DNA from: Candidatus Heimdallarchaeota archaeon
GTDB taxonomy: Archaea > Asgardarchaeota > Heimdallarchaeia > JABLTI01
Direction of reading: 5' to 3'
Assembly: GCA_019056785.1 (NCBI GenBank)
Contig: DXJV01000046.1
Location: 1-24,578 of the forward strand
DNA: 24,578 nt
The notes beneath the pieces were generated by a model. It worked only from the letters and a program-made list of their open reading frames with translations. It was not told where the DNA came from and searched no databases. Shown piece after piece: positions 3,806-18,163 of the stretch. Position 1 is the stretch's first letter; every line of letters starts with the position of its first letter. A program made the position numbers and the translations under genes.

Positions 3806-5944
3806 CTACCCAGCAATAAATGCCAGGAGTCCTGCTCCGTTGTTTATGAGAATGAGCAATCCTAGAAAGATTGTTGCTGTGAGCACCATCACAACAAGGA
3901 GGGTATTAATACTTGGACCGGCGGTATCTTTGAAGGGGTCACCAACAGTGTCTCCTGTGATGGCTGCTTTATGAACATTTGTGCCTTTTCCTCCAAGATT
4001 GCCATCTTCAATCCACTTCTTCGCGTTGTCCCATGCCCCACCAGCATTTGACATGAAAATAGCAAAGACAAAACCTGACAGAATTGCCCCGGCAAGGAAT
4101 GCTCCCAGCGCTGCAACTCCGAAAAGAATGCCGATCAAAAGTGGCATTGCTATTGAAATGATGCTTGGTAGGACAAGCTCACGAAGGGCTCCTTTTGTGG
4201 CGATTTCTATAGTTCGTTTAAAATTCGGTGGTTCTGTTCCTTCGAGGATCTTGGGGTTGCTTTCAAATTGATCTCGTATTTCATCAACCATCTTTGCTGC
4301 ATTTCGTTGGACTGAGAGAATCAGCAAAGAGGAAAAGAGTACTGGTACCACTACTCCTAGAAATGCTCCGATAAGGACATTGATATTTAGCAAGTCTATC
4401 TCGAGCGGAATTCCCGCATCTTCTACGAAAGAGAAGAGGAGAGCAAAAACAGCCAAATTCGCTGCACCAATGGCAAAACCTTTGGTAATTGCTTTTGCGG
4501 TATTTCCTGCAGAATCAAGTTTATCAGCTGTCCTTATAACTTCTTCACCCAAGCCGCCTTGCTCTGCTATTGCACGGGCATTGTCAACAATGGGGCCATA
4601 GGCATCATTTGAAACGATTGTTCCTACAATTGCCAGCATTCCCACAGCCGCCATAGCGATACCATACACCTTATCCAGATAGTAAGAGATGGCCATTGCA
4701 ATAGCTATACCGATTGCTGGAGGAACGACACTTAACATTCCATAGGAGAATCCTGAAAGGATGACTACTGCATCTCCTTCTTGGGCTGCATGGGCAATGT
4801 CCCTTGTTGGTTTTTTATCATCTCGAGTAAACCAATCGCTTGTCCAACCGATGAGTATTCCCGAAAGCAAACCAACAACAACGCAAATGTAATCATACCA
4901 TAACTGCTTAATTTCCGCTGCTGTTAATCCCGGAGTTGTTTTGATAAGTACCCAAACAAAAAGCGCTCCTAAAGCTGCAAAAAGTGCTGTTGCTATATAG
5001 GTTCCTGTATTGAGCAGTTTTCCCGGGTCCTTGGTTTTCAACCATTTTATTAAGAGAATGCCAATAAGTGAGGCGATGAGTCCGACGGCAGAAATAACTA
5101 TCGGATAGATTACAAATGTTCCACGAACTGCATCTGTTGCACCTGCCATAAGCACATATCCAAGAATCATCGCTGCAAGAATCGAAGCAACATAGGAGTC
5201 AAATAAATCTGAACCCATGCCGGCAATATCGCCAACATTATCACCCACATTATCTGCTATTGTTGCTGGATTTCTAACATCATCCTCTGGTAAATGATAT
5301 TCTGCTTTTCCAACAAGGTCCGCTCCGACATCTGCTGTCTTTGTGTAAATCCCGCCACCACACTTCATAAACAATGCAATCGTGCTTGCTCCGAAACTGA
5401 ATCCTAAAACAACATTTGGTGTTTTGAAAATCCAGAAAATGCCTGAAATGCCAATTAATGCAAACCCAACGACGGCGAGCCCCATCACTGCGCCCCCAAA
5501 GAAAGCAACATCAAACCCTTTATCCAAACTTTTGGTGCAGCCAAAAGATGCTCGGGTATTTGCTTTCACACCAACCATCATTCCAAGATATCCTGCAAAC
5601 ATGGAGGCAATTGAGCCTATCAGGTAGGCTATTGCTTGACGCCAGTTGAGGGCATCTCCATTGAACGGTCTTATTAGAATTGGCACTTTTCCACCTGTTA
5701 ATTCCGAAGGGAGGAACAGGAGAATGATCAGGAATAGGATGAGCACAAAAATGGAGAGAATGCGATATTGCACGAACAGAAATTTTTTCGCGCCGTCTTC
5801 GATATATTTTGATACCTCAACCATCCGTTCATTTCCTGGGTCCTCTCGAAAGACGATTAGGCTGAAAATGATTGCCACTATTATTGAAATTACCCCTGCT
5901 ATCAATGCGATTATAATAGTCAAAGGCACATTTGCTAAAACCAT
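3806..5944 (-). CDS. hppA: Membrane-integral pyrophosphatase (H+/Na+-translocating family), K+-independent signature
   Basis: Motifs GGGIYTKTADVGADLVGK, EDDVRNPATIADNVGDNVGD, DAYGPIVDNA, GNTAKAITKG, GGAWDNAKK and GDTVGDPFKDTAGP, with many TM helices. ATG 5944 follows a GGTGA SD. Confidence 0.96.
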   Translation of the reverse strand: MVLANVPLTIIIALIAGVISIIVAIIFSLIVFREDPGNERMVEVSKYIEDGAKKFLFVQYRILSIFVLILFLIILLFLPSELTGGKVPILIRPFNGDALNWRQAIAYLIGSIASMFAGYLGMMVGVKANTRASFGCTKSLDKGFDVAFFGGAVMGLAVVGFALIGISGIFWIFKTPNVVLGFSFGASTIALFMKCGGGIYTKTADVGADLVGKAEYHLPEDDVRNPATIADNVGDNVGDIAGMGSDLFDSYVASILAAMILGYVLMAGATDAVRGTFVIYPIVISAVGLIASLIGILLIKWLKTKDPGKLLNTGTYIATALFAALGALFVWVLIKTTPGLTAAEIKQLWYDYICVVVGLLSGILIGWTSDWFTRDDKKPTRDIAHAAQEGDAVVILSGFSYGMLSVVPPAIGIAIAMAISYYLDKVYGIAMAAVGMLAIVGTIVSNDAYGPIVDNARAIAEQGGLGEEVIRTADKLDSAGNTAKAITKGFAIGAANLAVFALLFSFVEDAGIPLEIDLLNINVLIGAFLGVVVPVLFSSLLILSVQRNAAKMVDEIRDQFESNPKILEGTEPPNFKRTIEIATKGALRELVLPSIISIAMPLLIGILFGVAALGAFLAGAILSGFVFAIFMSNAGGAWDNAKKWIEDGNLGGKGTNVHKAAITGDTVGDPFKDTAGPSINTLLVVMVLTATIFLGLLILINNGAGLLAFIAG

Positions 5945-6137
5945 TTTTTCACCACTCAAATTTCAAAAGTGTAAATGGTGTAGTTTCTTTCTTATTTAAA
6001 AGTTGCTTGCATAACTAATTTTTCGTTGGGAATTTTGCCTTTTCTCATGGTAAAAAAAAGACACTTTATGTAATAAAGAATAAAATTAATAATGCTAAGC
6101 CTTTATTTTCCATTGTATTAAATGTGTGGTTTTTTAA

Positions 6138-8222
6138 ATGAGTGAAAAATTTCTTTGGCCGGCGGAATTATCGCAACATTTCCAACGCCTTTCTCCATCA
6201 CAGCGAGAGCAGCTAAATTTACGCCTGTTTGAAATGAGAGAAAAGAATGAACAAGATTATCTTTTAACGTTTATGGCAGCAGTACAAGAATTGGCTGAAC
6301 AAGAAGAGGATTTTCTCAAAGATACTGAATTTAAGTTCTTGCTTGCTCATACGTACTTTTTGAAAGCCGATTACAAACGGCTACTCGAGATTTGTGAGGA
6401 AGACTCAACACACCCTGGCTTACTGAATTTGAAAGCTCTCACTCTCATCAACCAAAAAAAATTCGAAGAAGTAGAGTCCTTGCTACAACAGGCTGAGGAA
6501 GCAGCCACGAAAACTGATCCCTACAACAAGCTTTTTTCCCATGCCAATAGAATGCTTTGCTATTATTATTCCCAACAATTTGAAAAACTCATTTCTGAGC
6601 AGAAAAACTTTGATGATCTTTATCTGCAACTCAAAAACAACTTCTCTGAGGAGAAAGATCTCCTTTTAGCACTAACTGATTTACATGTTTTAGGCAGTTC
6701 AGTCATGATAAATTATTTCCGGCGAGAAGGGCGTATCGAGGAGAGCATTGCCCTGGGAGAAAAACTCATCTCCCTCCTTCTTGAGAATAATAATCGCTTC
6801 TATTTAAATCGAATTTACAACAACACCGCTTTATGTTATGTTGAAAGTGGACGATTAAAGGAGGGGCTCCAATATCTCGAGAAAGCATTTCAATTCTCGA
6901 CTATTCTCTCAAATGACCTGCGATTGGCTATTGCGGCTAACAACATCGGCTTCATTTACCGGTTTATGGGTAACATTGAGAAAGCCATGCATTACTTCAA
7001 GCTTTCCCTCGAAAAGTCAGAAAAAGCAAATGTTGCCCCCTACATTATCGCTTCGCAAACAAACATTGCTCATCTCTACTTAGATTTTGGGCAGGCAAAT
7101 CTTGCCTTGGAGCAGTCGGAATTAGCTCTGGAGGAACTAGAAAAGAGTGAGGTACCCATCCCCCCTCAAATAACAATTGCCCTCAATTTCTGCAGGGCGG
7201 ACATATTTGAAACGCTGGATAAATTTACCAAAGCAAAGGATATTCTTAACGAAACATCTGAAATTATCAATGAAACAAAACTGGCGAAAGAGCAATCGAA
7301 AGTGTTCTTACGTCTTGGTCGTATTGCTGCTCGACAGTCAAATCTGGGCGAAGCCAAACGTTATCTCGAGGAAACCATCCAGACTGCGTTTCAAAACCAG
7401 AATTTTGAAGTTATCGTCAACGCCAAACTCCAATTAGCAGAGATTGATTTGCTTCGCTACCGGATGACTGGCGATGATAAACTGCTTATGGATACTCTCG
7501 AGAAGCTAGAAGATATTAAGAAGCTCTGTCTGGAACAAGATTACAAATTAATTTTAATTGACGTTTACATTTTGCAAAGCTTGCTGCTAACCTTAAAGAA
7601 TAAGAAACGGCAAGCCAAGAAAATACTCGAGTCAGCCATTCAATTGGCCGGCGAATTGGGTGTAAAAGAGAAGGAAGCTGAAGCAAGGAGCCAGCTTAAA
7701 GAAATCGAGCGCGAGAAAAAGAATGTTCTTGTGCGGATATTTACCCGGATCAATCAATCTATCCGCTCGACCATTGCTTTTGAGAGTATCACAAAACCCA
7801 AAGAAGTGAAATCAAAAGTTAAAGCACTCTTTATTATCATCAAGAATAGCGGCTTACCCTTGTTTCAAAAGCATTTTGCAACAGAGGAAGAAGGCGAAAA
7901 CATCGACCCGAACTTACTATCAGGACTTTTATCTGCCATTCAAACGATTGGTCAAACGATCTTAAACGCCCCAAGTGAGGATGGACAGTTAAAACTCATC
8001 GACCATGGCAATATTTCCATTATGCTTGAATCAAATGAGAAATGCCTTATTGCATTAATTGTTTCTCGGGAAACATATCTCCTTCGAGAAAAATTGCGGG
8101 AGTTCTCGAAAAAACTCCTCAATGAACCCTTCTATCAAAAAGTCGATTATTCCATCATTAAAAAAGACGACGTTCGAGACAAGTTAATTGAGAAGCTCAT
8201 CCAAGAAACCATTCTCAGTTAA
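6138..8222 (+). CDS. TPR-repeat protein with C-terminal longin-like domain
   Basis: TPR-like repeats (e.g. YNNTALCYVESGRLKEGLQYLEKA, NNIGFIYRFMGNIEKAMHYFKLS). The C-terminal ~135 aa carry LFIIIKNSGLPLF...LLSGLLSAI...IDHGNISIMLE, a pattern typical of Asgard longin domains. Confidence 0.82.
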   Translation: MSEKFLWPAELSQHFQRLSPSQREQLNLRLFEMREKNEQDYLLTFMAAVQELAEQEEDFLKDTEFKFLLAHTYFLKADYKRLLEICEEDSTHPGLLNLKALTLINQKKFEEVESLLQQAEEAATKTDPYNKLFSHANRMLCYYYSQQFEKLISEQKNFDDLYLQLKNNFSEEKDLLLALTDLHVLGSSVMINYFRREGRIEESIALGEKLISLLLENNNRFYLNRIYNNTALCYVESGRLKEGLQYLEKAFQFSTILSNDLRLAIAANNIGFIYRFMGNIEKAMHYFKLSLEKSEKANVAPYIIASQTNIAHLYLDFGQANLALEQSELALEELEKSEVPIPPQITIALNFCRADIFETLDKFTKAKDILNETSEIINETKLAKEQSKVFLRLGRIAARQSNLGEAKRYLEETIQTAFQNQNFEVIVNAKLQLAEIDLLRYRMTGDDKLLMDTLEKLEDIKKLCLEQDYKLILIDVYILQSLLLTLKNKKRQAKKILESAIQLAGELGVKEKEAEARSQLKEIEREKKNVLVRIFTRINQSIRSTIAFESITKPKEVKSKVKALFIIIKNSGLPLFQKHFATEEEGENIDPNLLSGLLSAIQTIGQTILNAPSEDGQLKLIDHGNISIMLESNEKCLIALIVSRETYLLREKLREFSKKLLNEPFYQKVDYSIIKKDDVRDKLIEKLIQETILS

Positions 8223-8292
8223 TTTTGTTCTTTTCTTTCGGCCAAAAAGATTATCTATTCCAATTCCTTCTATTTTTCTCAGTGATAGAGAA

Positions 8293-8853
8293 ATGAAAGT
8301 TGAAGTTGAACCTCAAGCAGCAGCTTACCCTGCTCCGGCGGCTCTTGTTACCGCCTTTAAACCAGACGGCTCTGCCAATGCCATGACTGCAGCATGGATT
8401 GCTAATATTTGTGCTATTCCCCCTGCTTTGGTGGTTGGAATAAGAGATGTACGCTACACCTGCGAATTAATCGACCAAACAGGCTGTTTTGGTGTCAATA
8501 TTCCAAGTAGCAAGATTGCTCCGGAAATAGATTATTGTGGGCTCGTTTCCGGTAGAGAGCATGACAAAATCAAGGAAACAGGATTGACAATTTTCAAAGG
8601 AAAAGTTGTCGAAGTGCCTTTGATCGAAGAATGCCCCATTAATATTGAGTGTCGGGTTCTTCAAAAAGTAAAAGTAGGAAGCCATTTTGCGTTTTTCGGC
8701 GAGATTTTGAAAGTTTATTACAGCGAAGAAATGATCGGTGAAGATAACAAACCCGACCTCTTACTTGGCGACATCATTGCTTATGGTACGAGAAAATACT
8801 ACCGGCTAAAAGAAGCAATTGGCACCTATGGTTTTTCCAGAAAAGAGGATTAA
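8293..8853 (+). CDS. Flavin reductase family (flavoredoxin-like, FMN-binding split barrel) protein
   Basis: YPAPAALV, NAMTAAW, FGVNIP, DYCGLVSGREHDK, PLIEECPINIEC and GSH..F.GE motifs. ATG 8293 follows AGTGA; the track's 8188 start overlaps the upstream gene. Confidence 0.92.
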   Translation: MKVEVEPQAAAYPAPAALVTAFKPDGSANAMTAAWIANICAIPPALVVGIRDVRYTCELIDQTGCFGVNIPSSKIAPEIDYCGLVSGREHDKIKETGLTIFKGKVVEVPLIEECPINIECRVLQKVKVGSHFAFFGEILKVYYSEEMIGEDNKPDLLLGDIIAYGTRKYYRLKEAIGTYGFSRKED

Positions 8854-8859
8854 GAAGGA

Positions 8860-10368
8860 TTAATATTCCTTCAATAATTTCTTGTTCATCTTTCGCATGA
8901 GAAATGCGCCCGTTTCCAGTCCAGAACTCATTGCTGCTTGCACCCCTGAACCGCCGACATTTGAGCCGGCAAAAAAGAGGTTTTTAATTTGGCTTTTAAA
9001 GCTCGGTAGTCGTTGATTGACTTTGGGGCCATACCAGGCACCATTTGTTGAACCGTTAAATCGTTCGAAGGTCATTGGTGTTGCCAATCGTTTGATTTTA
9101 ATATGCTTTGAAATGTTAGGCATAAAACTTTCCAGCTTCGTAATGATTTTTGCGATGATGCTCTTTTTTAGTTCTCGATATTCTTTTGTTCGCTTTTTAT
9201 TCCTGCCTATTTTCCAAAAATTATTCCAATTATAAGGTGCAAATGTCAACACTATCAGCGACTCTTTCTCCGGTCGTGCCTTGAGTTTATCTGAATTATT
9301 GGGTATGCGAACAGCAATACCATCAACATTGAAGTCATTTTCTTCGTAGTTCTTAGTGATATCGCTTGTACGCCCGATCATGAGATGAGCCGGATATTTT
9401 GAGAGATCGTAATTTTCAATGCCCAAATAAAGCAAAACGCCCGACATGGATGTTTCTATCTTCCGGATGCGGTCAGTAAATCGTCGCGAGAAATGTTTCT
9501 TTCCGATATATTCGAAAATGGTTTTGTGTAAGTCGCTATTTGCTATAATATAGTCTGCTTGAATTTCTTCGCCTGAAGTGAGCAACACACTCTTAGCGGT
9601 CTTTTTCTCGATAAGAATCTTTTTCACTGTGCTCTTATAACGCAACTCGCCTCCTCTGGTGACATACAACTCTGCCAGTTTTTTAGCGAAAGCGCCCATT
9701 CCACCCTCAGGGTAGTAAAGCCCTTCTGTAAAGGCAACACTTATGATGTATGCTAAAATTGGTGCTTTCAAGTTCTCGAGTTTTAAACCAAACCACAGCG
9801 AAAATAATTTGAAATAATCTTTCACTTCATCATTTGTGATGAACTCGTCTAGTAATTGTTTGTAATTTTTCCTGGCATATTTTCGCAACACAGGCCGTTT
9901 GAAAATTATTCGCAAAAGTTTTCCAAAAGTAATACCCTCATCCAGCGAAAGCTCTTTAATATCTTTTCTTATTTGGTGTGAAGTTTCAATTAATTTTCGC
10001 ACACCGGCACTTTGATCTGGGTGAACTTTTTCGATATCTTGTAAGAACAACTCAGGGTTTGAGAACATTCTTACAACATGATTATCATTATAATAAGCTT
10101 CCATCGGCTCTACTGTATGAATAGGGTGATAGAAATCATATTTCTGTAAAATCGCTCGCGAGGAGCTCTTTGCATACCCTAGAATGGTTTCTGCTGCAGA
10201 ATCAAAATAAAAGCCATTAATTGTGAAGCCGGAGACATATCCTCCTGGGTAATCATTCTGTTCAACGATTAGTGTCTTTAAGCCTGGGTTCTCGCTTTGG
10301 AGGTAAATACCTGCATGCAATCCGCCTATTCCAGCACCAACTATTATCACATCATATTTTTTCGTCAT
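8860..10368 (-). CDS. Phytoene desaturase (CrtI)/retinol saturase-like FAD-dependent oxidoreductase
   Basis: YDVIIVGAGIGG dinucleotide fold, PGGY...GFYFD, YYPEGGMG, ATPMTFERF...GAWYG and IKNLFFAG. The substrate cannot be assigned. Confidence 0.85.
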   Translation of the reverse strand: MTKKYDVIIVGAGIGGLHAGIYLQSENPGLKTLIVEQNDYPGGYVSGFTINGFYFDSAAETILGYAKSSSRAILQKYDFYHPIHTVEPMEAYYNDNHVVRMFSNPELFLQDIEKVHPDQSAGVRKLIETSHQIRKDIKELSLDEGITFGKLLRIIFKRPVLRKYARKNYKQLLDEFITNDEVKDYFKLFSLWFGLKLENLKAPILAYIISVAFTEGLYYPEGGMGAFAKKLAELYVTRGGELRYKSTVKKILIEKKTAKSVLLTSGEEIQADYIIANSDLHKTIFEYIGKKHFSRRFTDRIRKIETSMSGVLLYLGIENYDLSKYPAHLMIGRTSDITKNYEENDFNVDGIAVRIPNNSDKLKARPEKESLIVLTFAPYNWNNFWKIGRNKKRTKEYRELKKSIIAKIITKLESFMPNISKHIKIKRLATPMTFERFNGSTNGAWYGPKVNQRLPSFKSQIKNLFFAGSNVGGSGVQAAMSSGLETGAFLMRKMNKKLLKEY

Positions 10369-10786
10369 CTTTTCTTTTTCTTCCTTTTATATTCGTTCTT
10401 TTTTGGCATTATCTTTATGTGGAGAGATTTCTCACAGAATAGTTAGAAATGGCGTTTCAACTTTTGGTGAATAGGAGGCTAGAAAGTTTTTACAAAAAAG
10501 CCAGCTCTTTGTAAATAGGCATCTTTCAGCATTTTTAGTAGAAATCGTTGAAATATTCTTAACATTAAATGAGTAATGCTTTAGTTAAATGTTCTTTCCT
10601 TTTACTGTTAAAGCCACTGCTTCATTTCCTTAAGAATTTTGTTGTTTTTTCCCATAATTATAAAAAAAAAAGAAGTAGAAAGCCTTCTTTGAGGGTATTT
10701 TTCTTTGATCTTGCTGAGAGTAGGATTTTTTTTACACGTTGGCTTTCGAGGAAGGTTGAGTAGTTTTATAATAGAGAATTTTTCCC

Positions 10787-12616
10787 TTAGGTAGCCAGTT
10801 CTGTTAATTGCAATTTTTCCAAAAGAGTTTTTGTTGGCGAACCCGTTTTTGGATCCCAATGCCGTAACTTATAATATTCTTTCAATTGAATATCCAGGTT
10901 GGGTATTTTTCCCTTTGCTCCTCCTTCCTGTAATTTGTAGTGCATGATTTTTGGTAGCCGGTCATTTTTTCTTGTTAGCCCGAGCTTCATATTCAGCAAG
11001 CGCTTTATTGTTGTTATTCGTTCTCCTACTTGCATCACGTCAGTTATTGTATAGTCCCAACCTGTAGCTAGTGAAAGAGCTTTTACTGTATCTGTGAAAG
11101 ATGGCATGGCAAAATGACACATGATTAAAGCATTATATACTGCTCGAAAGTCTTGAACTTTGACAGCAATACGGGCTGCTTCAAGGTCATCAAATCTATC
11201 CTCGCATTGTAACCCTATTTCAGGGACGGTTACCCCCAAGCCCATTTTATACCCGTCGCCATTATTATGACAAGCTCCTCGTGAAGAAGTAGCATAAACT
11301 GTTGCCATTGAAAAGAACGCTCGCGGATCATGAAAAGGCAATTCCAACCCGTTAACTGTATGTGCTTCTTCTGGCAAGTTATAACTGGCGGCTAAAAAGT
11401 CCGACCCCTCGGCCATTTTCTCACCGATCCCTTCTCTTTTTGCGAGTTTTTCTAATAAGGCGATCAATGCATCAACATTTCCCCATTTTGCATCTATTCC
11501 TTCCAATTCCTCTCGAGTGATGACACCCCTCTCGTATAAATGGAAGACAAGGCCAATAATTTGTCCCGCTGAAATTGTATCCAAACCATAATTGTTTGCA
11601 AGATAATTCGCTTTTGCAATACCTCGCAGATTATCTATCAGTAAGTTTGTGCCAAAGCTTGCCAATGTTTCATACTCCGGTCCCCCTGTTTGTGGGATAG
11701 CATATTTTCCTTTGCTGATTTTTACAATTCGTCCGCAACCAATAACACAGCTATAACAATGGTACCGTTTCACCAAGATGGTTTCTTTCATCCGGCTACC
11801 ATCTATTGCTTCGGTATTTGGCATGAAACCTTTATACCAGTATTTTACCGCAACATCTCCCCATTTCATCCCTCCCGAAACATAGGCTGCTGTCCCAAAC
11901 ATCCTTCGTGCGACTGTATTTTCATAGATGTCCTTTCGCATTTTACTTCCGAGAGCTTTAACTTCAGCGTCATTTGCTACTGGTACAGCTCGCGTCGAAG
12001 AATAAAGTATAATTGCTTTCAGATTTTTTGACCCCATAACAGCGCCCATTCCTGTTCGTCCTGCTGCACGGTCACCATCATTCATTATTGCAGCAATTTT
12101 AACCTTTTTTTCTCCAGCAACGCCAATCGTTGCAAAACTTGAGATATTATCAAAACGCTTCTTGAGTTCTTCCTCAACAGCATAGACATTTTTCCCCCAG
12201 AGAAAGCTCGCATCCAATAACTCGACACTATTATCAATGATTAGCAATGCCTTTGGTTCATTTGCTTTGCCTTTGAAAAGCAAACCATCATAACCTAAAA
12301 ATTTCAGATAAGCACCAAACTTCCCCCCCGAGTTTGCTTCTCCCCAGATATTTGTTAAAGGCGATTTTGCACAAACAACATGTCGGCCACAGTTTGGTAT
12401 TTTTGTTCCCACTAATGGGCCTGTCATAAAACACAAGGGATTTTCCGCTGACAGAGGGTCCAAATCTTTTGTAAGTTCCTCATAGAGCAATTTTGCTGCC
12501 AGCCCACTTCCACCGATAAATTGCTTATAGTCTTCAACAGGTGGCGTTAGTGTATCAATTCTTTCATCTGCAAGATCAATTGTTAAAATTTTCCCGGTAT
12601 TCCCAAACAAAGACAT
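10787..12616 (-). CDS. aor: Aldehyde:ferredoxin oxidoreductase family (tungstopterin) enzyme
   Basis: KSPLT, AAGRTGMGAVMGSKNLKAI, CYSCVIGC plus a distal IMCHF (4Fe-4S ligands), GPEYET, GLDTIS and HDPR motifs. Confidence 0.95.
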   Translation of the reverse strand: MSLFGNTGKILTIDLADERIDTLTPPVEDYKQFIGGSGLAAKLLYEELTKDLDPLSAENPLCFMTGPLVGTKIPNCGRHVVCAKSPLTNIWGEANSGGKFGAYLKFLGYDGLLFKGKANEPKALLIIDNSVELLDASFLWGKNVYAVEEELKKRFDNISSFATIGVAGEKKVKIAAIMNDGDRAAGRTGMGAVMGSKNLKAIILYSSTRAVPVANDAEVKALGSKMRKDIYENTVARRMFGTAAYVSGGMKWGDVAVKYWYKGFMPNTEAIDGSRMKETILVKRYHCYSCVIGCGRIVKISKGKYAIPQTGGPEYETLASFGTNLLIDNLRGIAKANYLANNYGLDTISAGQIIGLVFHLYERGVITREELEGIDAKWGNVDALIALLEKLAKREGIGEKMAEGSDFLAASYNLPEEAHTVNGLELPFHDPRAFFSMATVYATSSRGACHNNGDGYKMGLGVTVPEIGLQCEDRFDDLEAARIAVKVQDFRAVYNALIMCHFAMPSFTDTVKALSLATGWDYTITDVMQVGERITTIKRLLNMKLGLTRKNDRLPKIMHYKLQEGGAKGKIPNLDIQLKEYYKLRHWDPKTGSPTKTLLEKLQLTELAT

Positions 12617-12647
12617 GTTGATTCACTCAATAGTATTAATCTCTTCG

Positions 12648-12755
12648 AGATTTTAAGCTTATTTCTTCCGAACGGGTTTTCTCTCGAGAATCATTTTTCA
12701 AGCGAAAAAGGGCCTTTTATCCCAAAAACAAAACTCAAAAAGCTTAAGTAAGTTG
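12648..12755. promoter_or_regulatory. Divergent archaeal promoter region (aor / TrmB-like gene)
   Basis: Purine-run + TATA-like elements AAAAAGCTTAAGTA (+, ~12737) and AAATAAGCTTAAAA (-, ~12664-12651) lie upstream of the two divergent starts. Confidence 0.4.
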
Positions 12756-12803
12756 TTATTAGATAATGAACTAAGAGAAAAATTTCGTTAGGAGTTAATC
12801 GAA

Positions 12804-15062
12804 TTGTCTGAAATACTCGAGAATTTACAGCTTTCAGCTACTGAACAACAAATTTATCTGGTTCTTTTATCTTCGGGACAACTTTCCATTCCTGAAATCG
12901 CTGAGCAGCTTGACTTAAAAATAGGCGATGTTGAAGAAGCCATAAAAGGACTACAAGCTAAAAATCTGGTCTATACAAACCCTTCTATTATTGAAAAGTT
13001 CACAGGCATTTATCCGCTAGTATCTCTTGCGGACAAAGCAAAGGATGCCTTAGAGACGATTAAAAATATTGGCGTTGAGATTAACAAATATGCGGCAGAA
13101 AAAACCGACGCCATAGACCAGATCGTCCGGCAACAAAAGGAGAGCATCCAGCAAATCACTGCTACTGCTAAAGAGGAAGTTCGTGTTGCAACTGACACAT
13201 CTATCAAAGAGATTTCCACAGAACTTGATAAGCTCATCGAAGAAATTAGCCAAATTCTCAACACTGAAGAGCATCAGATATCTTCTTTGTCGATGAGTAC
13301 CCAATCTGAATTGACAAAACACTTTCAAGAAACGACCGAAGCTGCAGGGAATACTATTAGCGCTGGTGTGAGCGATATTTCCAACAGCTTAAACGAATCC
13401 AAAGAAAATATCACGAAAGCGTTTACCACCTCTTCCAGTAGGGTTGAAGATGCTGCCACCACCTTTGAAAATAGCCTTCTCGCTTCTTTAGAGAATAACT
13501 TCAATGATTATACCTCTATTGCTGGTGACATCCAACAAAAAATCGAGAATGCCATTAAAGAATACAATGCTGCTGCGAGAGATAATATGTCACTACATTC
13601 CCAGTTGGTTAATGAAAATTATTCTACAGTTATAGAATCTGTGAATTCCAAACTTGGGGTGCACAATAAAGAAACAAACCAGATATTAGAGGAGCGAATC
13701 AGGAACATCACCCAATCAATTGGTGAGATGAATGATGACTTTGGTAAAATCATTCGTGAACGATTAACAGGTATAAAACGCGAATATAATCAATTGATTG
13801 AGACATTCAGCCAAAATGTCGAGTCGCTTTTCACCGAAGTCAACACACAACTTGAGACACTTATCGCCACGAAAACACGGAACAATGAAGAAAAATTAAC
13901 AAACCTCTTTAACCTGCTTAAAGAGAACCTCGAGAAAAGTGCAAATGAGACGAAACAAGAGATCAAAGCGAAGGAAGTCCGGATTGGAAATGATTTGCAT
14001 TCTGCCACTGAGACTACGCAGCGAAAGATGACAGAAATAAATGACAAACTCAACATGGAATTAGCGAACCGCTTTAACAAAGCAACAACTGACTTTTCTA
14101 CCGCTAAAAATAATATGAAAGATACTGTCACTCGGGCCAAAAGTGACATTATTGCCAAGTTTGCCGAAGCACGAGATACAGCTATCACAAGCATTGCAAA
14201 GGAATTCGAAGAAAAAGAACGAATCTTTGCTGAAATTAGCTCGAAAATCATCGACGATATCCGAGAGCTCAATACTGTTAGCGAAGCGAAAACTAAGAGC
14301 TTCATTAAAGACACCGAAGAAAGCGCTAAAAACGCTATTGCAAAAATCGAGATGCCAGCAAAGACTTTGCTCAATCGTGGCAAACAGACTGCCTTAAAAT
14401 ATGTCCACGAACAAGCAGACCTTGTAAACAAGACGATAGATAAAAGTCGTTCAGGCATAGAGGATTCCCTTGTAGCCGAAACATCCAATGTCAAGTCACA
14501 ATTCAAAGGCTATGGTGAGAAGTTCATTGAAAGTAACAAAATCATTGAACGTATTCTTACTGGACTTGAGCTCACCTATCGAGAGTTGATCACGAAAATT
14601 AGAGATATGCCTCGCCCACAATTGAACACTGTGACCCTTATAGGCAAAGATGCAGTGCTTAACCAAATGGCTAAAATCTTGACGGGGGTAAAATCAACCG
14701 TTACCGTTGTTTATCCCAACATCTCTGACATCCATATTGATGTCTTGTTAAATAGCAATCCTCGCACACGTATTATTGTTATCTCTGATTTTGACACCTT
14801 CAAGAACGCGGACATCATTCGCAAACTTATGGCTAAAGAAAACATTCAATTGAAATCCCTTGTCCTTGGGTCGACACAAAAACCCTATTATGCTATCGGC
14901 CGAGATGCTGAAGAAGGACTTATTGGTACGATTGATGATTCCGGCGAAGTCGTTGCTATTACCAGCAATTCCCAGGCATTTGTGGAATTGATCAGTACCG
15001 AAATCATTAATGGTATTCTTACGCCGAAAACAAAACGGGTTGTTCTTCCTGAAAACGAATAA
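12804..15062 (+). CDS. TrmB-type wHTH protein with ~530-aa helical (hendecad) insert and C-terminal TrmB effector/PLD-like domain
   Basis: N-terminal LQLSATEQQIYLVLLSSGQLSIPEIA...L.AKNLV (TrmB wHTH), then a long Pro-free helical region, then a C-terminal IGKDAVLNQMAKIL..VKSTVTVVYP...RDAEEGLIG domain. TTG start after GGAG. Confidence 0.8.
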   Translation: MSEILENLQLSATEQQIYLVLLSSGQLSIPEIAEQLDLKIGDVEEAIKGLQAKNLVYTNPSIIEKFTGIYPLVSLADKAKDALETIKNIGVEINKYAAEKTDAIDQIVRQQKESIQQITATAKEEVRVATDTSIKEISTELDKLIEEISQILNTEEHQISSLSMSTQSELTKHFQETTEAAGNTISAGVSDISNSLNESKENITKAFTTSSSRVEDAATTFENSLLASLENNFNDYTSIAGDIQQKIENAIKEYNAAARDNMSLHSQLVNENYSTVIESVNSKLGVHNKETNQILEERIRNITQSIGEMNDDFGKIIRERLTGIKREYNQLIETFSQNVESLFTEVNTQLETLIATKTRNNEEKLTNLFNLLKENLEKSANETKQEIKAKEVRIGNDLHSATETTQRKMTEINDKLNMELANRFNKATTDFSTAKNNMKDTVTRAKSDIIAKFAEARDTAITSIAKEFEEKERIFAEISSKIIDDIRELNTVSEAKTKSFIKDTEESAKNAIAKIEMPAKTLLNRGKQTALKYVHEQADLVNKTIDKSRSGIEDSLVAETSNVKSQFKGYGEKFIESNKIIERILTGLELTYRELITKIRDMPRPQLNTVTLIGKDAVLNQMAKILTGVKSTVTVVYPNISDIHIDVLLNSNPRTRIIVISDFDTFKNADIIRKLMAKENIQLKSLVLGSTQKPYYAIGRDAEEGLIGTIDDSGEVVAITSNSQAFVELISTEIINGILTPKTKRVVLPENE

Positions 15063-15084
15063 AAAAGCAAGCCATTCTTAGAGC

Positions 15085-15110
15085 TTTCTTTTTTTTCTTT
15101 TATTTTTTTT
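15085..15110 (+). terminator. Oligo-T tract terminator between convergent genes
   Basis: TTTCTTTTTTTTCTTTTATTTTTTTT begins ~22 nt after the stop at 15062. Archaeal intrinsic termination occurs at oligo-T tracts. Confidence 0.5.
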
Positions 15111-15131
15111 ACAAAAATCTTGGCCTTTATT

Positions 15132-17261
15132 TTAGAAAATGCGTTTGACTAATGAATCGACATAAAATCTATTTTCTTCTCCCAGAACAATTATAGGTTC
15201 TTCTTCTTTTAGGAAAAGAACATTTAGTTCTTCAGTGAAACGCTTCAACTGTTTCCGTATTAAGTAACTTTCCTTGTCAGTTACTAGAGCCACAATACAA
15301 TTTTCTGCCGGCTCTAGGAGAATATCAAAATCGCCGTGTTTTATCCCTTGTAAGAATCCTTGTTTAAGGTAGGATGTTTTTGTCCCTTCACTCATCTTTT
15401 CTGTGAAGGAGATTATTGCGCCTAAAAAACCTGAGACCAACGTTTCATCGATCTTACCAAAGACGTCTGTGAAATAATGAGAATAAAGCGGCAGCCCACT
15501 ACTCGAGAGAATCAGCAGCAAAATCGGATGTGTGCCCAATTCTATTATTTCATTCCGATTTACCTTTTTCGACGAAACGAGCAATGGTGCGGGTGTTCTT
15601 TCAAATTCATTGAACGATGCCAGTTGAGAACTTTTAGAGTTTAGAAATCCGAGTTGCCTGTAATTTTCGATGCGATGGAGGTAGTCTTGCACAGCATTGA
15701 TTTTTTCGAATAATTGGAGGTTTGAATAATACTTTTCAAGTCTTTTGAAAATTTTCTCAGCTTGAAGATATTCTCGATTTGAAAACAACAGAGAAGCCTT
15801 GAAAAACTCAAGTTCATTGTAGTCTTGAGAATGTTCATCCTTTTTAATGTGCCCTTGGAGGTCTAGAATGGCGATTTTGGCTTTTTTGAAATTCCTTTTC
15901 GATGGTTTAGCAATGTTTTTCAAAACTAGAACCGAAACAAGCTGCAAACTCGCTTTAAGTGATAACTGCTCCAACTTACTAAGTTCGGCGAACTCCTGAG
16001 CATTGGCAAAGAGAAATTCTGCTTTGCTGAAGTTTCCGGAGCAGAATTCAATAAACCCTTCGAAATAGATTAAATAAAATTCACCTGCCAGATCTCCCCG
16101 TCCTCGGAGAGCTGTCCTGGCCTTCTCAAGATAGAGTTCTGCTGAATCTAGATCATCTGCTTTGAGAAAGGCCAAAGTTAAATTCAAAACGGTTTGAGGA
16201 TTGTTGATTCTTTTACTTTCCAAATTCAAAAGGCGATTTGTTGCGGCAGAAATTTGGCCATAAGCTATTTCCAAGCCGGCGATTTTATTTATGGTAATTG
16301 CTTGTTCTTGAAAGTCACCCATTTTTTGAAACATTTTCTCAGCATGCTTACAGAACTTGATTCCCTCTTCGATATTCTTTTGTAAATGAAGATTAGATCC
16401 AATTGTCATTAGCGTTTTTGCTATAAGATATGGGTTCATTAATGAACGTGCAATAGCTGCTGCCTTTCTGTGATGTTGATTTCCAACCTCGGGTTCATTC
16501 ATAAATTCTATCAAATAATTTCCATAATACAGTTCAAAAAGAGCGATCAATACTTTGTGATCAATTTTCTTGGCAAGAGACAAACCACTATTAATAATAT
16601 CATACGCTTTAGTATACCTGCTCATAGAAAGTAGGATCTCGCATTCTTGGAGGAGGATTTGTGTTCGTAGGGTGTTGGCGTAAAGGACTCCAATTTCATT
16701 TTCATACGAGGAGAGAAATTCCTTAGCAGAAAGCAGCTGGAACAAACCATCTGTAAGGTTTCCTTTTGCAACAGAATACAAAGACTTTGCCAGGTAAAAA
16801 TCGATTTGATAAATTAAATCATCAGTCGATAATCTCGCTTCCACAATTCTAATATTGGCAATTGCTCTATTAAGTGAATTTTTCGCCACTAATCCCTTTA
16901 TCAAAGGTATTAATGTGAAATAATTCTTAGACGCCTTTGCGATTTTCTCTAAGTCATCCAGTTGCCGGAGTTCATAAGCAATATTTGCTGCAAGAAATTC
17001 CAAATTGGGATTTTTTCCCAGCTCGGCTTTTGCAAGCGAAAGCACCTTTTGGCTAAAATGCATAAAGGGTGTTTTGCTGCTATTGATAGTTTTGAGGGCT
17101 TTTTTTAAGAGCAATAATTCTAACGGTTCCAGGAGTGGCAAATAATGTTTAAACTCTCTCGGTATGAGACTCCGTTCTGCTTCTGTGATGAGTTTATCTA
17201 CACCCAAAGAAATAGCTCCAGTATGTTTGATTTTTCTCTTGTAAAAAGTTTTTTTCTTCAA
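15132..17261 (-). CDS. TPR-repeat protein with C-terminal longin-like domain
   Basis: Helical TPR-like repeats plus C-terminal LLLILSSSGLPLYSHYF...LVSGFLGAI...IKHGDFDILLE. A possible true start is TTG 17207, with GGAG 8 nt upstream. Confidence 0.8.
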   Translation of the reverse strand: MKKKTFYKRKIKHTGAISLGVDKLITEAERSLIPREFKHYLPLLEPLELLLLKKALKTINSSKTPFMHFSQKVLSLAKAELGKNPNLEFLAANIAYELRQLDDLEKIAKASKNYFTLIPLIKGLVAKNSLNRAIANIRIVEARLSTDDLIYQIDFYLAKSLYSVAKGNLTDGLFQLLSAKEFLSSYENEIGVLYANTLRTQILLQECEILLSMSRYTKAYDIINSGLSLAKKIDHKVLIALFELYYGNYLIEFMNEPEVGNQHHRKAAAIARSLMNPYLIAKTLMTIGSNLHLQKNIEEGIKFCKHAEKMFQKMGDFQEQAITINKIAGLEIAYGQISAATNRLLNLESKRINNPQTVLNLTLAFLKADDLDSAELYLEKARTALRGRGDLAGEFYLIYFEGFIEFCSGNFSKAEFLFANAQEFAELSKLEQLSLKASLQLVSVLVLKNIAKPSKRNFKKAKIAILDLQGHIKKDEHSQDYNELEFFKASLLFSNREYLQAEKIFKRLEKYYSNLQLFEKINAVQDYLHRIENYRQLGFLNSKSSQLASFNEFERTPAPLLVSSKKVNRNEIIELGTHPILLLILSSSGLPLYSHYFTDVFGKIDETLVSGFLGAIISFTEKMSEGTKTSYLKQGFLQGIKHGDFDILLEPAENCIVALVTDKESYLIRKQLKRFTEELNVLFLKEEEPIIVLGEENRFYVDSLVKRIF

Positions 17262-17400
17262 ATGCTTTTATTCAATTTTCATTAATAAGTTCTCTTGATT
17301 GTGCACTCTTTTTTTTTCCTTAATTATTAGATGGTTAAGACACTTTTTATTGCCCTGTTGTAATTTACTACGTATTAGAAAGAGATAAGGCGGCAATCAA

Positions 17401-18048
17401 ATGAGACAGCAAATTCCACCAAGACATTTTCGTGGTTGGTATGCCTTCTTTTTCTTACTCCTTTTCTGTAGTTTACCTCTTTATCCGGTTTCTGCCGATT
17501 ATAACATTAAAGTTGGCGATGCCTTCAAGTTTAAGATCGAGTTAATGGATGCTCCGTACATCTATTTACAAGTTGGCTCGCTTGTTTTTTCAGAAGGAAC
17601 TGTGATGAAGGTGAGAATCACTTATGTTAATATTCCTTACATTAAATATTCCATAACAATTAATAGTCAAACCGAGGAATTTACCATATTGTCGAACATT
17701 CTCGTTCAGGACCGAAACTGGGCAAACTTGACAGCGAAATATCAAGCCGAAGGTTATGAAATCTATGAGGATAGCAAAATTTGGGGCGTGAGGTTAAATG
17801 GTAGCACCTATTTAAAAGTCGATTATTTAAAGAGAGATGGAGTCCTCAATTATTTTCACGCTCGAAATGAGTCAACACTGAAATCCGCGTTGAAAATCGA
17901 TGAAATTGTACTCAATCGCATTTGGGATAACTACAAAATCATCTGGCCGTATGCTTTTTTTGCTCTCCTTCCCTTAGGTGGACTCGTTTATGGATTAGTG
18001 CGTTATAGCCAGAAAATCAATTCCTTGGAGAGAGAAAGGGAAGCTTGA
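17401..18048 (+). CDS. Secreted/surface protein with signal peptide and C-terminal TM anchor
   Basis: Signal peptide (..FFFLLLFCSLPLYPVSA|DY), beta-rich body with N-x-S/T sequons, and a C-terminal TM (IIWPYAFFALLPLGGLVYGLV) followed by a charged tail. Confidence 0.75.
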   Translation: MRQQIPPRHFRGWYAFFFLLLFCSLPLYPVSADYNIKVGDAFKFKIELMDAPYIYLQVGSLVFSEGTVMKVRITYVNIPYIKYSITINSQTEEFTILSNILVQDRNWANLTAKYQAEGYEIYEDSKIWGVRLNGSTYLKVDYLKRDGVLNYFHARNESTLKSALKIDEIVLNRIWDNYKIIWPYAFFALLPLGGLVYGLVRYSQKINSLEREREA

Positions 18049-18163
18049 GGGTCTTTAAAGAAGAATAGCAAGTTTGAGCGTAAATTAAATAAAGTACCCC
18101 TTGAAATAATTGCCCAAGGCAGTCTGATAATCAGTCGTTATTGATAGGAGGAGAATCTGCCTG

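Follow-up and report, generated by a model that had tools for sequence, protein, structure and literature searches.

A TrmB-family protein from a Heimdallarchaeota archaeon with a 528-residue hendecad rod, and a proposed two-fold antiparallel dimer

TrmB and TrmBL2, textbook examples of archaeal regulators and chromatin proteins, dimerise through a short helix. In Candidatus Heimdallarchaeota archaeon, a gene within the 24,578-nucleotide stretch of DNA analysed here (the window; contig DXJV01000046.1 of assembly GCA_019056785.1) encodes a protein whose two TrmB-type domains are set apart by 528 residues of rod. This raises the question of how such a rod is built and paired, and what a protein with this layout may do.

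Domain architecture of the gene product

The gene (P0001; positions 12804-15062, forward strand), taken from the open reading frame list and its translation, encodes a TrmB-like protein of 752 aa with a hendecad rod. It begins with a TTG codon, 8 nt before which a Shine-Dalgarno-like AGGAG (12791-12795, forward strand) can be read from the sequence, and orthologues share the same MSEIL... start. The product has no Cys and is acidic overall, with a net charge of about -15 on the rod. Its N-terminal TrmB-type winged helix-turn-helix (12804-13019, forward strand; residues 1-72, up to the invariant Pro71) is matched by PF01978 over residues 5-62 (32.6 bits vs. the Pfam cut-off of 25.6), and the best PDB matches of a profile of the family N-domain are TrmB 3qph (E 3.5e-13) and TrmBL2 (E 5.5e-11). 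At the other end, a Pro-containing linker, DMPRPQLN (14604-14627, forward strand; residues 601-608), assigned from the translation and modeled as coil by AlphaFold2, leads from the rod to a PLD-like domain of the TrmB/TrmBL2 type (14628-15038, forward strand; residues 609-745). The AlphaFold2 model of this domain (pLDDT 92.5) matches the PLD fold in Foldseek, namely that of TrmBL2 (TM 0.66-0.70; 0.69 for 5bpd) as well as TrmB 3qph and 2f5t. PF11495 was detected in 10 of 45 family C-domains (best E 3e-6), and the C-domain profile weakly matches residues 108-201 of 3qph, the N-subdomain of the TrmB effector-binding domain. Together, the N-domain profile, with 3qph as its top match, and the predicted C-domain model support assignment of the product to the TrmB family at both ends, with a TrmBL2-type layout, in agreement with the TrmB-like identity that an earlier note had read from the letters alone.

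The HxK motif of catalytic PLD/HKD proteins (HxK(x)4D) is absent from residues 609-752, where the sole His is H644 in H-I-D; as judged from the model, what it has in common with that catalytic superfamily is limited to the fold. The protein ends 7 residues past the PLD-like domain, with no sugar-binding beta-barrel subdomain (G320 and E326 in TrmB), which TrmBL2 likewise lacks (PMC4158304). Indeed, TrmBL2 of the Thermococcales (5bpd, 5bpi, 5bqt, and 5box) has the same order of winged helix, amphipathic helix, and PLD-like domain (PMC4877046). However, TrmBL2 is 264 aa long with a helix of ~30 residues, compared to the 528-residue hendecad helix of the rod protein, so the observation made previously that the short helix is hugely lengthened between the two domains holds.

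The winged helix departs from its characterized relatives at the surface that meets DNA in TrmB. In this subgroup it has a net charge of -6 and zero Arg, and its acidic recognition helix shows little conservation. Glu44-Glu45 align with Tyr50-Asp51 of the TrmB recognition helix, and Tyr is outside the eight commonest residues at the Y50 position among 83 long-rod relatives. Both canonical TrmB paralogues in the same genome keep Tyr at this position. Conservation is retained only at Arg/Lys65 of the wing. MreA, a functional member of the TrmB family, is also without the recognition Tyr (PMC4158304); therefore, its loss here is compatible with TrmB-family membership. DNA binding by the winged helix, which the earlier note had assumed, thus appears doubtful from its charge, its lack of Arg, and the replacement of TrmB Y50 by Glu44.

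Periodicity and fixed length of the rod

The rod (13020-14603, forward strand; residues 73-600) was delineated by Fourier analysis, a register table, and the AlphaFold2 helices (residues 73-331 and 340-600). The Fourier spectrum of Kyte-Doolittle hydrophobicity for residues 86-610 shows a sharp peak at 3.67 residues and no other, with a power of 615, ~45 SD above shuffled rods (n = 500; 47 +/- 13, maximum 110), while the power at 3.5 residues is 3. The rod is thus a hendecad array and not the heptad that the earlier note had named as fatal to its proposal, and the same 3.67 peak occurs in every long relative tested. From residue 92 to ~600, the register holds through about 47 consecutive 11-mers, exceeding the at least 24 counted originally, with large hydrophobics at 11-mer positions 2, 6, and 10 (60-64% each) and partially at 3, 5, and 9; positions 2 and 6 had been noticed beforehand, position 10 had been overlooked. 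Such a 2/6/10 core corresponds to hendecad core positions a, d, and h. The hydrophobic stripe occupies 3 of 11 positions and consists mainly of Ile, Leu, and Phe, in a rod composition rich in Thr, Ser, Lys, and Glu. Along the entire rod, the local 11/3 phase shows no jump, and its drift stays below ~90 degrees. With Pro at residues 30, 60, 71, 518, 603, and 605, the 446 residues from 72 to 517 are Pro-free (~445 by the earlier estimate), and the AlphaFold2 helix ends at residue 600, where the helical region had been expected to stop. To our knowledge, this rod is among the longest uninterrupted hendecad coiled coils in any prokaryote. Sub-threshold matches to NCBIfam ZorA and Sta1, Pfam Baculo_PEP_C and Sigma70_r3, and similar models were set aside as coiled-coil or HTH noise.

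The length of the rod is strictly conserved. Approximately 30 full-length orthologues are 750-762 aa long at 54-84% identity, and the rod is indel-free in 27 of 28 orthologues. In a second length class (524), whose reference is P0065 and whose members were collected by genome search (a word-based search gave 4 matches), 36 of 37 members have an indel-free rod at 26-38% identity to P0065. Lengths this strictly kept imply that the rod either serves as a kind of ruler or is paired residue by residue from end to end. Chemoreceptor (MCP) length classes behave in the same way, each having a fixed rod length in which single indels are untolerated. Across the family, anchor-to-anchor lengths (Pro71 to Thr609) form 47 distinct classes that are not quantised modulo 11, and variation in multiples of 11, as the earlier note had anticipated, is found neither among these classes nor among the nearly indel-free orthologues. 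Cross-class alignment for symmetric indels, at 15-20% identity and with aligner gaps of 4, 7, and 11 scattered, was uninformative.

Of 201 Asgard genomes, 129 contain family matches, with rods from ~100 to ~1540 residues in fixed length classes. The source genome, which is 82.5% complete, contains five long-rod paralogues including this protein, one of them with Pro-Asp-Pro at the rod midpoint; the number per genome reaches five. Every informatively named family member is from Asgard archaea, and no description of the family was found in the searchable literature; the rod family is so far Asgard-only and previously undescribed.

Pairing of the rod halves and arrangement of the chains

Covariation, charge, conservation, and AlphaFold2 support antiparallel pairing of the two rod halves at i + j ≈ 667, about residue 334. 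APC-corrected mutual information summed per anti-diagonal peaks at i + j = 666-669, including the top 3 of ~1000, which puts the pairing centre at residues 333-335. With entropy-matched covariation, this register ranks first of 931 anti-diagonals, with a 7-wide z of 5.2 (background SD 1.2). An independent check on the 524 length class, with 35 sequences drawn from other genomes, ranks i + j = 657-662 first among 923 anti-diagonals. When smoothed charge is compared to its own mirror, the strongest anticorrelation also falls at i + j = 666-669 (r of -0.58 to -0.68 with three window sizes), a peak specific to this class, the 524 class being without a clear one. Scans of residue-by-residue charge products and of hydrophobic coincidence over all anti-diagonals gave no peak. 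The most acidic stretch of the rod, a conserved patch in the N-terminal arm (13200-13265, forward strand; residues 133-154, with a conservation peak at 144-154), is the mirror partner of a basic stretch (14322-14387, forward strand; residues 507-528, charge +4.4) that is the most conserved of the rod (0.85-0.94), so that conservation peaks in both; I512, I515, E516, P518, K520, L523, N524, K527, and Q528 are invariant in the latter. In the AlphaFold2 monomer the halves are paired around a helix break at residues 332-339, with pLDDT <50 at 324-343; this break and the covariation place the dyad or apex of the pairing at the rod midpoint (13797-13820, forward strand).

Inter-chain pairing and intra-chain fold-back look alike in covariation, charge mirroring, and AlphaFold2. 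The rod of ~80 nm proposed earlier accordingly keeps its length (~78 nm) if pairing is between chains and is halved to ~39 nm if the chain folds back. Modeling of residues 200-470 as a two-copy complex, run without controls, gave no answer (score 0.01) and neither supports nor opposes self-association. The two arrangements can be weighed against the solved homologue. In Pyrococcus TrmB, the inter-domain helix forms an antiparallel inter-chain coiled coil with F81/I91' and F84/L88' contacts at i + j = 172 (PMC4158304), in a dimer derived from crystal symmetry that the review words as 'presumably builds a dimer'. Since the homologous TrmB helix pairs antiparallel, the rod is best read as that helix, expanded; and since the equivalent helix pairs between chains, a two-fold domain-swapped homodimer is the most parsimonious arrangement. 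With P71 mapped to TrmB P77 and T609 to TrmB I111, the anchors are 34 residues apart in TrmB and 538 in the rod protein, and the dyad is offset from the anchor midpoint by 6-8 residues toward the N-terminus in all cases (i + j of 172 vs. 188 in TrmB, 667.5 vs. 680 here, and 660 vs. ~674 in the 524 class). The P. furiosus TrmB structures (3qph and 2f5t) thus show the topology, and nearly the dyad-to-anchor offset, deduced here, although TrmB alone has the sugar-binding beta-barrel (G320, E326) and Tyr50.

The reading favoured over a hairpin, with a probability of roughly 0.5, is that the TrmB-type dimerisation helix has been lengthened from ~30 to 528 residues of near-straight 11/3 coiled coil, through which two chains would form a two-fold symmetric domain-swapped homodimer, a strut of ~78 nm. 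At each end of the strut, the winged helix of one chain would sit beside the PLD-like domain of the other. We infer for such a protein the role of a fixed-length architectural spacer or bridge, which would keep two winged-helix-bound ligands at a set distance; the ligand would be DNA, should the degenerate winged helix still bind it. TrmBL2 holds its winged helices side by side in adjacent major grooves and coats DNA as tetramers. In contrast, the rod protein has lost the recognition Tyr and has an acidic winged helix, and in the dimer model its winged helices, ~78 nm apart, would be out of reach of adjacent major grooves, unlike those of TrmB and TrmBL2. A spacer or bridge would also contrast with an operator-binding, sugar-sensing repressor.

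A possible but less probable arrangement is a hairpin, in which the rod folds back at residues 332-339 into an antiparallel arm of ~39 nm, similar to those of SMC, Rad50, and chemoreceptors, with the winged helix and PLD-like domain of one chain together at the base; two hairpins may then dimerise at the base as a four-helix bundle, leaving the conserved tip for a partner. All of the i + j ≈ 667 evidence fits a hairpin equally well, and the AlphaFold2 monomer is one, broken precisely at the middle of the rod and with Rad50 and a chemoreceptor as the top fold matches of the full-length model (7zr1 Rad50 and 9a65 MCP; E ~3e-3, TM 0.1-0.2, 0.22 for Rad50). However, single-chain AlphaFold2 tends to fold antiparallel homodimers back on themselves, pLDDT at the apex is <50, and in TrmB, the homologue with a solved structure, the corresponding contacts are inter-chain. 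In 83 relatives with rods of 445-1543 residues, coherence of the 11/3 phase is minimal at the midpoint (R 0.57 vs. 0.8-0.9) and Pro is ~6-fold enriched there, an excess that is modest in a Gly/Pro density scan and partly due to three related sequences. In paralogue C49, the midpoint has both an R-P-D-P sequence and a jump in phase. A phase break at the midpoint, found in ~30% of family members, is a natural hairpin-loop signature and counts against the dimer; on the other hand, ~70% of relatives remain in phase on both sides of the midpoint, which would not be expected if a loop intervened, and the largest phase break per protein, although modal at 0.50-0.55 of the rod, is widely scattered. 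In this protein and the 524 class, the centre has no Gly/Pro or other loop signature and the hendecad phase runs through it unbroken, which fits continuous helices across a dyad. Conservation of the flank at residues 287-330, like that of a chemoreceptor tip, and a geometry in which the winged helix stays by its own C-domain and a winged-helix pair could bind DNA are in turn favourable to the hairpin. The arms of SMC and Rad50 and the MCP hairpin likewise are antiparallel coiled coils of tens of nanometres with globular domains at the base, but they are heptad rather than hendecad, share no sequence homology with the rod protein, and pair within a chain where the rod may pair between chains. 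No ABC ATPase head, hinge, or zinc hook was found by Pfam/NCBIfam, and a kinase-control tip is absent as well.

Candidate functions, gene neighbourhood, and known hendecad systems

Extended to the family, the two-fold antiparallel reading leads to a more tentative proposal, namely an Asgard-specific family of fixed-length struts that would space or bridge DNA, or DNA and another structure, as a rudimentary nucleoid scaffold or ruler system. Such struts, which would be ~78 nm long here and up to ~230 nm in the 1543-residue class, would bear a winged helix and a PLD-like domain at each end, and a genome would hold several paralogues of differing conserved length; the proposal carries a low likelihood in this detailed form. 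If true, a scaffold or ruler would exist in the closest prokaryotic relatives of eukaryotes, and if these proteins organise DNA or tie it elsewhere, they would bear on the rise of complex cell and chromatin architecture near eukaryotes. Protein science, too, gains from the family a naturally occurring set of straight antiparallel coiled coils in graded lengths.

The gene neighbourhood raises the alternative of an ordinary, local TrmB-type regulator whose rod is an unusual dimerisation or sensor module. An aldehyde:ferredoxin oxidoreductase (AFOR) gene (10787-12616, reverse strand; Pfam AFOR_N and AFOR_C) lies divergently upstream as a neighbour, an arrangement that does not by itself imply a functional link; it adjoins the rod gene in each of the 8 orthologous loci whose sequence covers the upstream side. 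A GAPDH-like gene follows ~3 kb downstream, and TrmB-family regulators in Thermococcales control sugar-metabolism genes (PMC4158304). However, synteny is limited to close kin and spans >15 kb, so the AFOR adjacency is not specific, and the genes next to the paralogues and to distant family members are unrelated. Local regulation of the AFOR and GAPDH-like genes is improbable for further reasons, since the recognition Tyr is lost from a recognition helix of acidic, variable sequence, and five paralogues per genome with residue-exact rods of up to 1543 residues are hard to explain in this way. The gene-context search for conserved partner genes gave no functional partner for this subgroup. Among distant loci, a Cys-rich protein of ~300 aa with no Pfam match is encoded directly upstream in 4 of 14, with no counterpart found in the source genome at its 82.5% completeness, and a class-V aminotransferase gene turns up repeatedly nearby, in no set order.

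Less probable still is a parallel, in-register rod or filament of ~78 nm with winged helices at one end and PLD-like domains at the other, serving as a nucleoskeleton-like tether. The unbroken register across ~47 hendecads would be equally expected of it, and the winged-helix pair would be retained for DNA binding. Nevertheless, a parallel rod predicts no long-range i + j signal, yet this signal is the strongest of ~930 in two independent alignments; charge is mirror-complementary at the same register, and the homologous TrmB helix is antiparallel. Long-range parallel diagonals (j - i constant, offsets of at least 25) were not prominent, in a test that is blind to an in-register parallel dimer.

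A comparably slim chance attaches to an amphipathic 11/3 helix of the apolipoprotein, perilipin, or alpha-synuclein type lying on a lipid or membrane surface and tethering the ligand of the winged helix: an 11/3 periodicity is a signature of lipid-binding helices, Thr, Ser, Lys, and Glu abound in the rod, and the rod matches PF01442 (Apolipoprotein A1/A4/E; 43.1 bits vs. a threshold of 90) and, weakly, apolipoprotein A-IV in the PDB, but these matches arise because the rod shares the 11-mer periodicity only, its narrow Ile/Leu/Phe stripe (3/11) resembles a coiled-coil core, specific covariation and charge pairing between halves are unexpected on lipid, lipid-binding repeat arrays are seldom so free of indels, and there is no transmembrane segment and no lipid-related neighbour gene. 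Nothing positive was found for the lipid-binding and filament ideas of the earlier note, and covariation favours a coiled coil over a membrane-surface helix. Exchangeable apolipoproteins (PF01442) have the 11/22-residue amphipathic periodicity in common with the rod protein; in contrast, they consist of Pro-punctuated 22-mer class A helices, which the rod protein is without, its covariation pointing to a coiled coil rather than a lipid belt. It is from this 11/22-residue periodicity that nearly all family members carry a precomputed PF01442 label.

Known hendecad coiled coils form straight or slightly right-handed bundles (PMC6131620 and PMC3293630). The tetrabrachion stalk, the peripheral stalks of rotary ATPases (b2 and E-G), and Streptomyces Scy/FilP have the 11-residue repeat and the a/d/h(e) core in common with the rod. 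However, these are parallel, far shorter (the ATPase stalks) or often discontinuous, have no winged-helix/PLD-like fusion, and show no homology to the rod protein. One fragment of the rod family is publicly annotated as 'ATP synthase subunit b/b′'.

TrmB-type end domains joined by a hendecad rod

The open reading frame at 12804-15062 (+) encodes 752 residues from a TTG start, with AGGAG 8 nt upstream; the MSEIL... start is common to the orthologues in the alignment. A TrmB winged helix was matched above threshold in Pfam at residues 5-62, while an apolipoprotein match was far below threshold and an NCBIfam search returned nothing beyond the Pfam result. For a profile of the family N-domain, the best solved structures are TrmB (3qph, E 3.5e-13) and TrmBL2 (E 5.5e-11). 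The C-terminal 157 residues are predicted to adopt a PLD-like fold (pLDDT 92.5), the best matches of which include TrmBL2 (TM 0.66-0.70) and the TrmB effector domain; Pfam Regulator_TrmB is matched by 10 of 45 family C-domains. The HxK catalytic motif was looked for in the PLD-like domain of the rod protein and is absent. Since this domain is the last part of the protein, the sugar-binding beta-barrel of TrmB is missing, as it is in TrmBL2. Both TrmB and TrmBL2 have the order winged helix, dimerisation helix, C-terminal domain (PMC4877046), and this architecture is kept in the rod protein with a dimerisation helix approximately 15-fold longer. Thus, both end domains place the rod protein in the TrmB/TrmBL2 family and it is not categorically new; rather, it is a striking undescribed variant in which the hendecad coiled coil is giant, length-locked, and antiparallel. 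No description of the rod family came from full-text literature searches covering hendecad and long coiled coils of archaea, Asgard included, and TrmB with coiled coils in Asgard.

Between the end domains lies the rod (residues 73-600). Fourier analysis of hydrophobicity over residues 86-610, proposed in the earlier note for distinguishing periods of 3.67 and 3.5 residues, gave a single sharp peak at 3.67 with a power of 615, compared to 47 +/- 13 (maximum 110) for the shuffled rod (n = 500), and a power of 3 at 3.5, indicating that the periodicity is hendecad, not heptad. The earlier note had also read at least 24 uninterrupted 11-mers from the sequence; this register was borne out but understated, as approximately 47 rows of 11 are in register from residue 92 to about 600, and the local 11/3 phase shows no jump along the rod. 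Large hydrophobic residues fill 60-64% of 11-mer positions 2, 6, and 10, whose 4-4-3 spacing is that of the d, h, and a positions of a hendecad; at positions 3, 5, and 9, approximately 25% of residues are hydrophobic. Pro is absent from residues 72-517, and both Cys and Trp are absent from the entire protein. The hendecad rod is real and highly non-random.

Length classes, distribution, and paralogues

Approximately 30 full-length orthologues (750-762 aa, 54-84% identity) were found in Heimdall-type Asgard MAGs, and 27 of the 28 that were aligned are free of indels over residues 1-752, termini apart. When 1.84 billion representative proteins were searched with a profile, 285 relatives were found; 87 of these have both end domains, set about 100 to 1543 residues apart. 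One of the shorter relatives, P0121, has 323 aa and an anchor-to-anchor distance of 107 residues. Every long relative has a periodicity of 3.63-3.70 residues, and none is at 3.5. Lengths recur in classes of 524, 528, 542, 551, 572, 583, 682/688, 753, about 865, 1081, and 1543 residues; the spacing between these classes is not in multiples of 11, contrary to what had been anticipated from the sequence. The class with a 524-residue rod is present in all 31 genomes of a sister family, and its rod is indel-free in 36 of 37 sequences that share only 26-38% identity with the reference protein P0065.

Of 201 genomes sampled from the phylum, 129 have a family match (E <= 1e-8), and the informatively named family members are all Asgard (Heimdall, Hod, Kari, Thor, Frey, Sigyn, and Baldr), two MAGs suspected of mislabelling excepted. 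The exceptions are close orthologues (57-61% identity) in MAGs labelled Zixibacteria and Bathyarchaeia, which are probably mis-binned or mislabelled contigs.

The genome from which the window derives (G000, 82.5% complete) encodes five proteins combining a winged helix with an 11/3 rod, as well as two canonical short TrmBs. In addition to the 752-aa rod protein, these are paralogues of 781 aa (G000:C84:176645-178906; L002:1483-3828:+), 762 aa (G000:C49; L003:1498-3786:-), about 646 aa (G000:C84:143476; L073), and about 1199 aa (G000:C47:94354; L072). The largest is without a PLD-like C-domain, and the 762-aa paralogue carries R-P-D-P exactly at its rod midpoint.

Antiparallel pairing of the rod halves

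Antiparallel pairing of the two rod halves is a well-supported structural reading. The AlphaFold2 monomer model contains helices at 73-331 and 340-600; the low-confidence break between them (332-339) falls at the exact midpoint of 73-600, and the best fold matches of the full model are Rad50 and chemoreceptor hairpins. In the orthologue alignment, summing APC-corrected mutual information per anti-diagonal of the rod gave a maximum at i + j = 666-669, which includes the top three of approximately 1000 anti-diagonals; with entropy-matched columns and a 7-wide window, the z-score is 5.2 (background SD 1.2, best of 931). The same test in the independent 524 class gave a peak at i + j = 657-662 (best of 923), compared to a geometric expectation of about 666. 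Smoothed family-averaged charge, computed at three window sizes, is most anticorrelated with its own mirror at i + j = 666-669 (r -0.58 to -0.68), and stretch 133-154, the most acidic of the rod, lies opposite stretch 507-528, the most basic; conservation along the rod also peaks at these two stretches, the latter containing the invariant Pro518. In 83 relatives whose rods span 445-1543 residues, coherence of the 11/3 phase has its minimum exactly at the rod midpoint, where Pro is enriched.

Such pairing could join two chains or the halves of a single chain. A serious rival to the inter-chain reading is that the rod folds back on itself as a hairpin of approximately 39 nm: the covariation, charge, and AlphaFold2 data fit intra-chain pairing equally, and approximately 30% of relatives have midpoint Pro-x-Pro and phase breaks. 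The homologous contacts in TrmB, however, are inter-chain. The helix following the winged helix forms, in the Pyrococcus TrmB dimer, the pairs F81/I91', F84/L88', L88/F84', and I91/F81' (i + j = 172), an antiparallel inter-chain coiled coil termed domain swapping (PMC4158304). In profile alignments, the anchor residues Pro71 and Thr609, on either side of the rod, correspond to TrmB Pro77 and Ile111. The dyad (i + j) and the sum of these anchors are 172 and 188 in TrmB, 667.5 and 680 in the rod protein, and 660 and about 674 in the 524 class, so that in each case the dyad is offset from the anchor midpoint by 6-8 residues towards the N-terminus. Also against a hairpin, neither the rod protein nor the 524 class has a loop signature at the rod centre, where the hendecad phase is continuous; phase is kept across the midpoint in approximately 70% of relatives. 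The inter-chain precedent, the matching dyad offset, and the lack of a central loop together favour a two-fold antiparallel homodimer of expanded TrmB type, an oligomeric state suggested by sequence and the TrmB precedent. At 0.15 nm per residue, the 528 residues would give this homodimer a length of about 78 nm, and each end would carry the winged helix of one chain next to the PLD-like domain of the other. Homodimer and hairpin are open and closed forms of one contact map.

DNA binding, putative function, and gene neighbourhood

The TrmB recognition residue Y50 is replaced by Glu44 in the rod protein, and Tyr is outside the eight most common residues at this position among 83 long-rod relatives; both canonical TrmBs of the same genome retain it. 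The winged helix of the rod protein's subgroup has a net charge of -6 and zero Arg, its conservation is confined to wing Arg/Lys65, and the entire rod is acidic. Given the lost Tyr, the acidic and Arg-free winged helix, and the acidic rod, DNA binding is unproven, and it is doubtful for this subgroup. Moreover, while the winged helices of TrmB and TrmBL2 reach adjacent major grooves, those of the extended dimer would be too far apart to do so. Strict length conservation, several fixed-length paralogues, and the wide Asgard distribution suggest that the rod protein may serve as a fixed-length spacer, bridge, or scaffold, which would be a better fit than a local repressor.

An aldehyde:ferredoxin oxidoreductase (AFOR) gene (10787-12616, -) is divergent from and adjoins the rod gene, as in all eight orthologous loci covering the upstream side, and a GAPDH-like gene (18164-19192, +) lies 3 kb downstream. 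These neighbours recall the control of sugar metabolism by the TrmB family of Thermococcales. In Heimdall MAGs, both share synteny with the rod gene among close kin only, in which conserved synteny extends beyond AFOR to the whole window; the neighbours differ in distant family members. The close orthologues in the Bathyarchaeia- and Zixibacteria-labelled MAGs are those of locus L007 (DATKZI010000061.1) and P0026; the Bathyarchaeia-labelled locus, L007, has full Heimdall synteny around the rod gene.

Two TPR-repeat proteins of 694 aa (6138-8222, +) and 709 aa (15132-17261, -) are weakly similar to each other, and the TPR gene downstream of the rod gene is found in some orthologous loci only. 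A 215-aa ORF without a Pfam match (17401-18048, +; 29-45% identity) is kept just downstream of the rod or TPR gene in 9 of 9 orthologous loci examined. In four distant Asgard loci (L019:6350-7300:+, L023:5287-6177:+, L027:11677-12729:-, and L028:6954-7817:+), a Cys-rich protein of approximately 290-350 aa (C-x2-C ... C ... P-x-C-G, no Pfam match) is encoded by a same-strand gene directly upstream of the rod gene, of which it may be the operon partner in some of the length classes; it was not found by this query in the 82.5% complete genome of the window. The palindrome CTCGAG occurs at 20 sites within 4400-24399 (e.g., 12683, 12816, and 13929), compared to 3.5 +/- 1.9 (maximum 10) expected from dinucleotide-preserving shuffles, an excess that could stem from paired Leu and Glu codons or from a restriction-modification footprint.
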